Sequence record: NZ_CP012903.1
Origin: a plasmid
DNA length: 64,000 nucleotides
Direction: 5' to 3' (one strand)
Positions 54,097 to 62,794 of this stretch are shown here, piece by piece (within the stretch, counting starts at the first letter, position 1; each line of letters opens with the position of its first letter). The notes beneath the pieces were generated by a model that searched no databases, was not told where the DNA came from, and was given only the letters and a program-made list of their open reading frames with translations. A program made the translations under genes and the position numbers.

Positions 54097-54134
54097 CTTA
54101 GCGTAGGATAATTTCCTTTTTCCAAGCGGACCCC
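54097..54134. repeat. orphan 38-bp Tn3-family (Tn5393-like) terminal IR in right-end orientation
   Basis: CTTAGCGTAGGATAATTTCCTTTTTCCAAGCGGACCCC. Confidence 0.5.
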
Positions 54135-54224
54135 AGGGACAACGGAACGCAACACCAAGTAGATTGATGACATAAAGTTCCTTCAATTCCGATCTGCCCT
54201 CCCGCTTTCATTTTCTGCCGCAGA

Positions 54225-55993
54225 TCACTTTTGTTGCCATTCCTTTACAACAGCTCCCCAATCGACAGTTCTCTCGACCAATTTCCCATCAGCATACTTT
54301 CTTGTCCAAACATCCCAGAAGTCAGGGTCATCAGAATGGGGTTGCTGATCTTTCGTCAAATTTTTCATTTTAACCAGGACAGGAAGCTCAGATGCCCAGC
54401 CCATCAGTATTGCATGTTGGGATGGCAGTGAAGGCAACTCACGGAGTAATCCTCGCAAATTATCAGGTACCATTTTATGAACTTGCTCCTGATCTTTGTC
54501 ATTACTAATTCGATGCAGAAGAAAAGTATTACATTGAGATAAAACTGTAGGTGATAATTCTGATGGTCGTTGCGAGGAAACCACCATCCCAAGACCAAAT
54601 TTTCTGCCTTCTCGTGCAATTTTCTCAAACACTTGGCAGCAAACAGCTGCGACATCCTGATTTTCAGAGTCATCACGATACCGTTTAATAAATGTATGTG
54701 CTTCTTCAGCTACAAGTACCGTAGGTAAAGATTTATTATATAGTCTTCTATAGCGTTGCAATGATTCAAAAATAATCCTTGAAATCACAGCAGTAACAAT
54801 GTGAGTAATTTCGCTTGGAACTAGAGATAGATCTATTATAGAAATACAACTGTTATCATCTCTTGAACAATCGGTACCAAGATATTTCTCTAACCATTTA
54901 GCTAAGTCAATCCGATTATCAGCATCATTAGTAACAGATCTCATCCTTGTATCTGAGAGCATGGTGCGTATTCTGGCAACCAAATATTCAACATATTGTT
55001 CACTGCCATTTTCTTGAGCAAGAGCTTCTAAATAGGCAACCAGGTTATTACCATCAAATGGTAACGGTATATCTTCATTCTTTGGTAGTAACTCTTTCTC
55101 AAACCCTCCGAACTCTCTAAATGCAGAGGTAACACTCTCGATAATGCTATCTATTTCAGGCACGGTCGCTTGCATGGTTGCGTACTGTACATTCCTATCT
55201 TGTCTATATTTAGACATTATTGTGATTACATTCGTTAAGTTGTTATTTCCAAGTTTATCTCTGTATCCTTCAAAGCTTTCAATCCATTTACCCATTATCT
55301 CGTTAAAGCCTTTTGCAGGCCCCCAAGCTCCAAAGGGTTTCCCTGAACTTTTATCATGTTTTAAGGTTATGAGAACATTCCCTAGAAAACGTTTTATTTC
55401 TATATTTGAGGTTGTTTCAAGTTCAAAATCTTCGTTTCTCATTGCCCTTAGAGAACGCTTTAGTAAAGGAAGTTGGGCTTTAGGACTCGCTTGCGTAAAT
55501 GATGCCCATTCCGAGCTATTCCAAAACCAAGATGGCACTTGGAGTTGATGCTCATTTTCCCCAGCTTCGACTTTAAAAATTCTGCCTTTAAATTTTGTAG
55601 TTGGTCCCAAAGCACGTACATACTCGCCATTGGGGTCTAATATAATAAATCTGGCGTTTGGTTTTACTTCTGACTCCATTGCAGCTTCGAGTGACCATTG
55701 GATTAATCCTGCGACAGAACAAGACTTACCACTACCAGTATTACCAAGTACTGCTATATGACGACCAAATAATCTATCAGGGTCTACGGCTACATTAGCA
55801 TTGTTAGCAAGTGGACTTTGCCCAATAACTATTCGTCTATTATCACCAGACTCGACAATTGATCTAAGCTGTAAATCTGTTGGTAGTAAAATAGCTGAAC
55901 CAATAGAAGGAAATGATTCAGAGCCGCGTTGAAATTTAAAATAATCAGTACCATCTTTGGAAAAGCGTTTAAGAGTTCCGACTGGATTTAAAC
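54225..55993 (-). pseudogene. herA: herA (HerA/FtsK-like ATPase of a SIR2-HerA defense system), 3' portion after the IS insertion
   Basis: Walker A GNTGSGKS plus helicase-like ATPase core; the native frame resumes at SLNPVGTLKRFSKDG... after removing the IS and one copy of the AAC TSD. Confidence 0.65.
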
Positions 55994-62700: not shown

Positions 62701-62761
62701 TATTCTGAAGGGCGAGTTAAGACCATTAAATTTCAATACAAACAATGAATTAACCTCTTAG
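59753..62761 (+). CDS. tnpA: Tn3-family transposase TnpA (1002 aa, intact)
   Basis: [55 protein letters not shown]...; about 60-70 percent identical by eye to the Tn2 tnpA fragment at 19530. Confidence 0.9.
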   Translation: [1002 protein letters not shown]

Positions 62762-62794
62762 CGTGGTTTTTTACATCATTGGACCTTGAACCCC
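62757..62794. repeat. 38-bp terminal IR of the Tn3-family transposon (tnpA end)
   Basis: CTTAGCGTGGTTTTTTACATCATTGGACCTTGAACCCC, overlapping the tnpA stop as in Tn3. Confidence 0.75.

Follow-up and report, generated by a model that had tools for sequence, protein, structure and literature searches.

A Tn3-family transposon of the gamma-delta clade with predicted SIR2-HerA defence genes as cargo, and the non-autonomous element nested in its left tip on an IncT plasmid

The closest described relative of the element reported here is Tn1000 (gamma-delta) of plasmid F, a transposon of the Tn3 subgroup in which a terminal inverted repeat (IR) is followed by the transposase gene tnpA, the resolution site res, the divergently transcribed resolvase gene tnpR, a passenger gene in the tnpR direction and a second IR. 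SIR2-HerA is an anti-phage system that depletes nicotinamide adenine dinucleotide (NAD), and depletion of NAD+ is expected on infection. In the known systems (PADLOC; PDB entries 8j4u/8su9 and 8wiv) a SIR2 gene is followed by an overlapping gene for a HerA ATPase. Tn3-derived miniature elements (TIMEs), usually quoted as 50-500 bp in size, generate target-site duplications (TSDs) of 5 bp, sometimes 6 bp, and are mobilized in trans (PMC13367494). We analysed a stretch of 64,000 nt (hereafter the window) of the plasmid record NZ_CP012903.1, an IncT plasmid close to pT-OXA-181 (NC_020123; IncT, Citrobacter freundii). Positions 39069-62794 of the window very probably represent a single Tn3-family transposon of the Tn1000/gamma-delta clade, with SIR2-HerA as its cargo, the left tip of which was hit by a nested non-autonomous Tn3-type element. 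Transposons with passengers, SIR2-HerA pairs and TIME-like nesting are each of an already known kind.

The transposon in the window has the same layout as gamma-delta. The tnpA gene (59753-62761, + strand) is intact and encodes a Tn3-family DDE transposase of 1002 aa, which matches Pfam DDE_Tnp_Tn3 (E=1.2e-152) across model positions 1-389 of 389, as well as DUF4158, and which is 82% identical to the transposase of Tn1000/gamma-delta. The TAG stop codon of tnpA (62759-62761) lies inside the right 38-bp terminal IR (IRR; 62757-62794, - orientation, outer end at 62794). This repeat, already noticed at the tnpA end in an earlier note on this DNA, was read directly from the sequence and aligned with other copies. 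The tnpR gene (59012-59593, - strand) encodes a serine resolvase of 193 aa (Pfam Resolvase, E=3.6e-39) and diverges from tnpA across a gap of 159 bp. The gap constitutes the res region (59594-59752), in which a palindromic res I core, GTCTCAAAATTTATAATATTTGAGAC, is found at 59684-59709; the core resembles what we take to be res I of gamma-delta, and the TTTATAATATTT centre is common to the two transposons. The IRs likewise share their first 18 nt with the gamma-delta IRs, whereas the resolvase is only 48% identical to that of gamma-delta.

The two transposons also differ in their passengers, which comprise a SIR2 gene and herA (3.5 kb) in the window and a single ORF for a 698-aa P-loop protein in gamma-delta. 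We considered the gamma-delta passenger as a possible relative of HerA or SIR2, and rejected this on comparison, which revealed no similarity. The 698-aa ORF (plasmid F, L090, 4303-6399) has weak matches to the PADLOC candidate-defence family PDC-M36A (E=2.4e-11) and to a Pfam ORC-CDC6-like family.

The cargo genes run in the tnpR direction, and both the list of open reading frames (ORFs) and our reading of the sequence bear out the order given in the earlier note, namely tnpA, res, divergent tnpR, SIR2 and herA. The SIR2-family gene (57544-58935, - strand) is intact and encodes 463 aa (PADLOC SIR2 model PDLC04079, E=2.4e-155; Pfam SIR2_2). The start of herA overlaps the SIR2 stop by 4 bp, as in the known systems. 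A feature that the earlier note overlooked is that herA is split by an insertion sequence (IS). The first ~98 codons (57250-57547, - strand) match positions 4-99 of PADLOC PDLC04098 (E=6e-31), and residues ~99-687 (54225-55993, - strand) match positions 85-685 of the same model (E=2.5e-210) and Pfam DUF87, the HerA central domain. Between them lies an IS3-family element of 1,256 bp (55994-57249, - strand; ends TGAAGTGG...CCACTTCA), whose orfA and orfB correspond to Pfam HTH_Tnp_1 and rve. Comparison of the junctions with the uninterrupted gene of pT-OXA-181 revealed a 3-bp duplication, AAC, at 55991-55993 and 57250-57252, and an identical copy of this IS is found in the Providencia rettgeri plasmid NC_022589.

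The native form of the transposon would be a 7.5-kb unit consisting of IRL (the left IR), herA, SIR2, tnpR, res, tnpA and IRR, with SIR2-HerA in the passenger slot downstream of tnpR. Judging from the behaviour of the family, TnpA would act on the 38-bp IRs to give a cointegrate by replicative transposition, and TnpR would then resolve the cointegrate at res.

Attention was drawn to this locus by an IR that appeared to be of the wrong kind. Beyond herA, at 54097-54134, stands a 38-bp Tn3-type IR, CTTAGCGTAGGATAATTTCCTTTTTCCAAGCGGACCCC, which ends 91 bp past the herA stop and points in the same direction as IRR; in both its presence and its direct orientation it is as the earlier note described it. 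IRs at these sites exceed chance expectation (0 matches in shuffled sequence). Within 54097-62794 alone these are the only two IRs visible, direct in orientation and with 19 of 38 positions shared. The earlier note therefore proposed a chimeric or one-ended transposon in which the left IR was functionally replaced by an IR of another class or, alternatively, a defence cassette inserted at the boundary of an older transposon. When either 54097-62794 or 54135-62794 was taken as the element, no TSD was found (ATGCG or ACCCC versus AATTA). The evidence from the rest of the window and from other replicons, set out below, makes both proposals extremely improbable.

The true IRL of the transposon is intact and lies 15 kb further to the left. 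A search of the window with the IRL of an intact copy on an Enterobacter plasmid (L003) identified GGGGTTTGAGGGCCAATGATGCAAAAAACCACGCTAAC at 39069-39106 (+ orientation; chance expectation 0 matches), inverted relative to IRR as expected. Like IRR it starts with GGGG. It has one mismatch to the IRL of intact copies, is identical to IRR at 33 of 38 positions, and shares 29 of 38 with the gamma-delta IR. Intact copies can be aligned at their left ends with 39107-39186 (+), and the 119 bp of 39069-39187 show 100% identity to the left terminus of the transposon in a Shewanella profunda contig (L061). The presence of this IRL argues directly against a replaced left terminus. We also searched for copies of the element elsewhere with a normal inverted IR lying outside the position of the odd repeat, and found them; in L003, the normal inverted IRL GGGGTTTGAGGGCCAATGATGCAAAAAACCACGCTAAG starts 107 bp to the left of the equivalent of window position 54135.

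The odd IR, in turn, has an inverted partner of its own. At 39187-39224 the sequence beginning CGGGTCCGC matches it with two mismatches (36 of 38 identical), and the pair is flanked on both sides by AGGGA, at 39182-39186 and 54135-54139 (both +). The sequence of the SIR2-HerA transposon resumes with the second AGGGA, and matches to intact copies start exactly at 54135. The corresponding empty site, CTGAGGGACAACGG, is present in L061 and in a Cedecea contig (L053), both of which have the uninterrupted target AGGGACAACGG with a normal IRL and carry the same cargo lineage, with HerA 100% identical. The empty site of L061 equals the window flanks joined with one AGGGA removed; that of L053 has one G fewer just upstream. 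Taken together, the IR pair, the AGGGA on both sides and the empty site imply that 39187-54134 is a separate element of 14,948 bp that inserted by transposition at the left tip of the transposon, and the repeat at 54097-54134 is its right terminus. The anomalous IR is fully explained and is ordinary, and the features that explain it (a separate inverted partner, a target duplication and an empty site) count against a chimeric or one-ended transposon.

The distribution of the two sequences in other plasmids is consistent with this interpretation, as either is found without the other and matches end precisely at 54134/54135. The foreign end, with a match that stops at 54134 and without herA, was found in ~200 records; the herA end with its own IRL was found in many records, and the nested junction of the window in 20. 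Furthermore, a 737-bp element at 7092-7828 of NZ_CP116997 (L093), a 12.6-kb Escherichia coli plasmid, has ends that match 39187-39334 and 53979-54134 with 100% identity. The 737-bp element has 38-bp Tn3-type IRs and a single ORF of 122 codons, encodes no transposase, and shows the terminal CGGG on one side, as in the window. Its end sequence occurs in ~200 plasmid records. Many of these plasmids are small and contain both ends; the element had no match to a named TIME. The nested element resembles TIMEs in its 38-bp Tn3-type IRs, in the lack of its own transposase in the 737-bp form and in the 5-bp TSD, and differs from them in its larger size, 737 bp with a 122-codon ORF in the native form and 14.9 kb here.

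We therefore favour a sequence of events in which a non-autonomous element of a different IR class, with a native form of 737 bp in small plasmids and presumably moved in trans by another transposase, would have inserted into the 113-bp stretch between IRL and herA-proximal sequence, duplicating AGGGA. Candidate transposases for this movement are encoded beside related IRs on plasmids of Klebsiella and E. coli. Insertion sequences and another transposon would later have enlarged the element to 14.9 kb. As for the class of its IR, the label 'Tn5393-like' given in the earlier note could not be established. The repeat at 54097-54134 matches at 24 of 38 positions what we take to be the Tn5393 IR, a sequence that is found at 100% identity in thousands of plasmids, yet is unlabelled in the annotation there; it matches the Tn21-type IR of the window at 28 of 38 positions.

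It could be argued that 39187-54134 is a patchwork created by homologous recombination or by recombination mediated by IS26 or IS5, and that the AGGGA match is coincidental. The segment is rich in IS copies, including IS26, a frequent reshuffler, and the 737-bp element in L093 itself lacks a target duplication. However, both termini are the exact ends of a known IR-bounded unit, and the flanks rebuild an empty site to the base with a single 5-bp duplication, for which the chance is ~1/1024 before the exact IR ends are considered. The internal mosaic is also compatible with later accretion, and we judge a patchwork origin very unlikely.

Several observations nevertheless weigh against our interpretation of the locus as a nested transposon with a defence cargo. 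The left terminus of the nested element reads CGGG rather than GGGG, and an equally valid reading takes the TSD as 6 bp (AGGGAC) and the IR as 37 bp long. The middle 433 bp of the 737-bp form have no counterpart in the window. The outer transposon is flanked by TACTC and AATTA, with no 5-bp TSD in the window, and its arrival at this site by transposition is something we infer. With regard to the cargo, a promoter and terminator scan of 54100-59800 gave matches no more frequent than in shuffled sequences and revealed no clear SIR2 promoter, and the solved SIR2-HerA relatives are distant (E=8e-22 for SIR2 against 8j4u, and E=6e-48 for HerA).

The missing outer duplication is readily accounted for by the history of the plasmid backbone. 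The target sequence in plasmid Rts1 is TTTACTC followed by AAACGCTGG, and comparison with Rts1 shows that both the window and pT-OXA-181 have lost the backbone on the right side of the insertion. IRR abuts traG in pT-OXA-181, and a point upstream of higBA in the window, where it is followed directly by higBA (63031-63623), a toxin-antitoxin locus of IncT plasmids. In this region (window 62795-64000; pT-OXA-181 record positions 77902-83698 plus 1-8356), pT-OXA-181 keeps ~14.15 kb (traG, traN and others) between IRR and higBA that the window lacks. We attribute the absence of the outer TSD to the loss of the backbone next to IRR, since such a deletion would have erased it. Nested deletions anchored at one IR would fit intramolecular transposition of the Tn3-family type, and the window plasmid has probably lost its conjugation functions. 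No damage is apparent in TnpA, TnpR, res or either IR, and movement of the whole nest (39069-62794, 23.7 kb) would in principle still be possible.

Evidence for transposition of the native unit comes from other replicons. Five full-length copies were aligned at both ends, and three of these are flanked by perfect 5-bp duplications: TTATG in Morganella, TTTTC in a C. freundii IncL/M plasmid and TATTA in Enterobacter roggenkampii. The transposase of the window is 100% identical to that of one TSD-flanked copy (L008). At least 80 records of PLSDB, spread over the Enterobacterales, hold the full-length 7.5-kb unit (IRL-herA-SIR2-tnpR-res-tnpA-IRR); one intact copy lies at 8374-15889 of NZ_CP144726 (pCI190083_1). 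Of 5,426 complete E. coli genomes, 32 carry the unit, with a chromosomal location in at least two. The recurrence of the unit with its duplications in unrelated plasmids indicates that the 7.5-kb SIR2-HerA transposon is a mobile unit, and supports the view, put forward in the earlier note, that SIR2-HerA is a passenger of a replicative Tn3-family transposon. The search suggested there, for intact copies with both IRs and 5-bp TSDs, was in this respect successful, and the same three copies leave a replaced left IR unsupported. The location of SIR2-HerA inside TSD-flanked units also contradicts a separate cassette at the edge of an older transposon. None of the PGAP and PLSDB gene tables that we examined labels the 7.5-kb unit as a transposon, and PGAP places no named-element label on TnpA.

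Comparison of these copies suggests that the two halves of the transposon have separate histories. Sliding identity between the window and the copy on an IncHI2 plasmid (L001) is 100% from herA through tnpR, then falls to ~77% across tnpA. Against L003 and L008 the pattern is the opposite, with tnpA 100% identical and the cargo half 54-98% identical. The switch from the L001 to the L003 lineage falls within TTATAATAT (59694-59702), inside the res I core. A breakpoint located exactly in this core points to resolvase-mediated exchange between related transposons, and indicates that the tnpR-SIR2-herA half and the tnpA half recombined with other variants in the past, at res I. A further tnpA variant, 94% identical, is found in L053, and from these alignments the cargo module appears to have been paired with at least three tnpA variants.

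The proteins of the cargo are well conserved, and the SIR2 of the window is 100% identical to that of L001. The 3' part of herA (residues ~99-687) matches with 100% identity the intact HerA, of 687 aa, in L001 and pT-OXA-181. Without a continuous herA reading frame, SIR2-HerA is most likely inactive in the window; the later insertion of the IS3-family element would be the inactivating event. Compared with the known systems, the pair on the transposon shows full-length PADLOC matches and represents a distant subtype of those studied structurally. It also differs in being carried inside a replicative transposon and in having herA broken by an IS in the window; a defence function is here predicted from the genes.

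HerA contains a hypervariable block, corresponding to window positions 54767-55517 (codons ~257-506). In a comparison of L001, L009 and L010, the two cargo variants (L001 type and L009 type) share only 23-62% identity at residues ~280-400 and ~440-480, whereas the flanks of the block are 88-100% identical and SIR2 is 93-97% identical between variants. The block resembles a swapped cassette, and is possibly a specificity region.

The defence genes have been disrupted independently in many copies. In addition to the IS in herA of the window, SIR2 is interrupted in pT-OXA-181 (L004, 19455-22536) and, in L061 (1546-8000), by several kb of inserted DNA that is partly IS-related; apparent frameshifts in SIR2, herA and tnpA are present among L003, L007 and L008. 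Repeated disruption might stem from a cost that the system imposes, or from sequencing errors. The many broken copies (herA interrupted by an IS here, SIR2 by Tn2013 in pT-OXA-181, SIR2 in L061, and the three frameshifted copies) are also what might be expected if SIR2-HerA in this setting were not an anti-phage system, but a plasmid-addiction or exclusion module, or a toxic selfish cargo that is often broken. We consider this unlikely, given the strong PADLOC SIR2-HerA matches and the homology to solved complexes. Moreover, intact pairs persist in many plasmids, and part of the frameshifts may be sequencing errors. Intact SIR2-HerA pairs are found in L001, L009, L010 and L053, and defence against phage remains our preferred reading of the cargo.

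To trace the origin of the cargo, one genome per species was scanned. Neighbouring TnpA and TnpR were seen only where SIR2 shared 93% identity or more with that of the window. The next relatives, 75-87% identical, belong to Shewanella, Vibrio, Marinomonas, Oleispira, Neptunomonas and Glaciecola, in which SIR2-HerA is present, and no Tn3 genes were found within 8 kb of these pairs. Similarly, the SIR2-HerA pairs of L015-L036, 68-87% identical to the cargo, lie on chromosomal contigs of marine and aquatic gammaproteobacteria, and the 8 kb around them contain no Tn3 genes. It is a reasonable inference from these identities that the cargo was captured from an aquatic gammaproteobacterium.

The window is closely related to pT-OXA-181, with 99.97-100% identity in the IncT backbone as well as in the nested element and the SIR2-HerA transposon around it. 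pT-OXA-181 differs in having ISEcp1-blaOXA-181 (Tn2013) in SIR2, with herA intact, and in lacking an IS3-family insertion that the window carries in an oxidoreductase gene of the nested element. This second IS3-family element (~47766-49400; orfA 48838-49329, orfB 47798-48745) splits a gene for a PIG3-type NAD(P)H quinone oxidoreductase, which is intact in pT-OXA-181. The nested element also contains IS26 (51019-51838), an IS5-like element (52783-53978), fragments of IS1 and IS5, and a ferritin-like gene.

The largest component of the nested element is a third Tn3-family transposon (40014-47132), bounded by imperfect 60-nt IRs at 40013-40072 and 47074-47133. It carries tnpR (41598-42230), the toxin-antitoxin genes parDE along with a partial duplicate of parE, and a tnpA with a frameshift (44007-47034), and is found mainly in plasmids of Providencia, Proteus and Moellerella. 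Its flanks show no TSD in the window (GATAT on one side, AAAAT on the other), and at its right end it borders directly on an 80-bp fragment of IS1. The frameshifted tnpA is the only one inside the nested element. We considered it as the partner of the IRs at 39187 and 54134 and rejected it, as it belongs to the third transposon with its own 60-nt IRs. Staggered self-matches at 43092-43397 reveal 15-bp tandem repeats in an ORF that is annotated as a pentapeptide MXKDX repeat protein in pT-OXA-181.

Two further Tn3-family features were observed elsewhere in the window. A Tn21-type transposon has IRs at 26047-26084 (+) and 33790-33827 (-), and encodes a 988-aa TnpA, a 186-aa TnpR and an ORF of 561 aa, the size of MerA; merR is annotated in the matching region of pT-OXA-181. 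A lone Tn3/Tn2-type IR, GGGGTCTGACGCTCAGTGGAACGAAAACTCACGTTAAG, is located at 21733-21770 (-) and suggests the end of a Tn2/TEM-type transposon.

Our literature search identified no paper linking SIR2-HerA to a Tn3-family transposon, although the 2013 pT-OXA-181 paper and TnCentral were not covered. Searches combining Tn3 with SIR2, Tn3 with HerA, and wider terms for defence cargo returned nothing relevant, and nothing was found for six protein accessions. We speculate, with considerable reservation, that transposons of the gamma-delta clade represent an unrecognized vehicle dedicated to anti-phage cargo. Such a scheme would comprise capture from aquatic bacteria, spread on the resistance plasmids of Enterobacterales, swapping at res and diversification of the HerA block, with the candidate defence ATPase of gamma-delta itself in the same slot.

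For the study of Tn3-family elements, the locus suggests that when a stray, misoriented Tn3-type IR is seen beside a transposon, a nested non-autonomous element should be looked for before the transposon is explained as one-ended or chimeric. The blaOXA-181 unit of pT-OXA-181 is inserted in the SIR2 gene of the SIR2-HerA transposon. More broadly, these findings indicate that predicted anti-phage genes are not confined to prophages, integrative and conjugative elements and Tn7-like elements, and that classical Tn3-family transposons carry them as well, on the same conjugative plasmids by which carbapenemases are disseminated.

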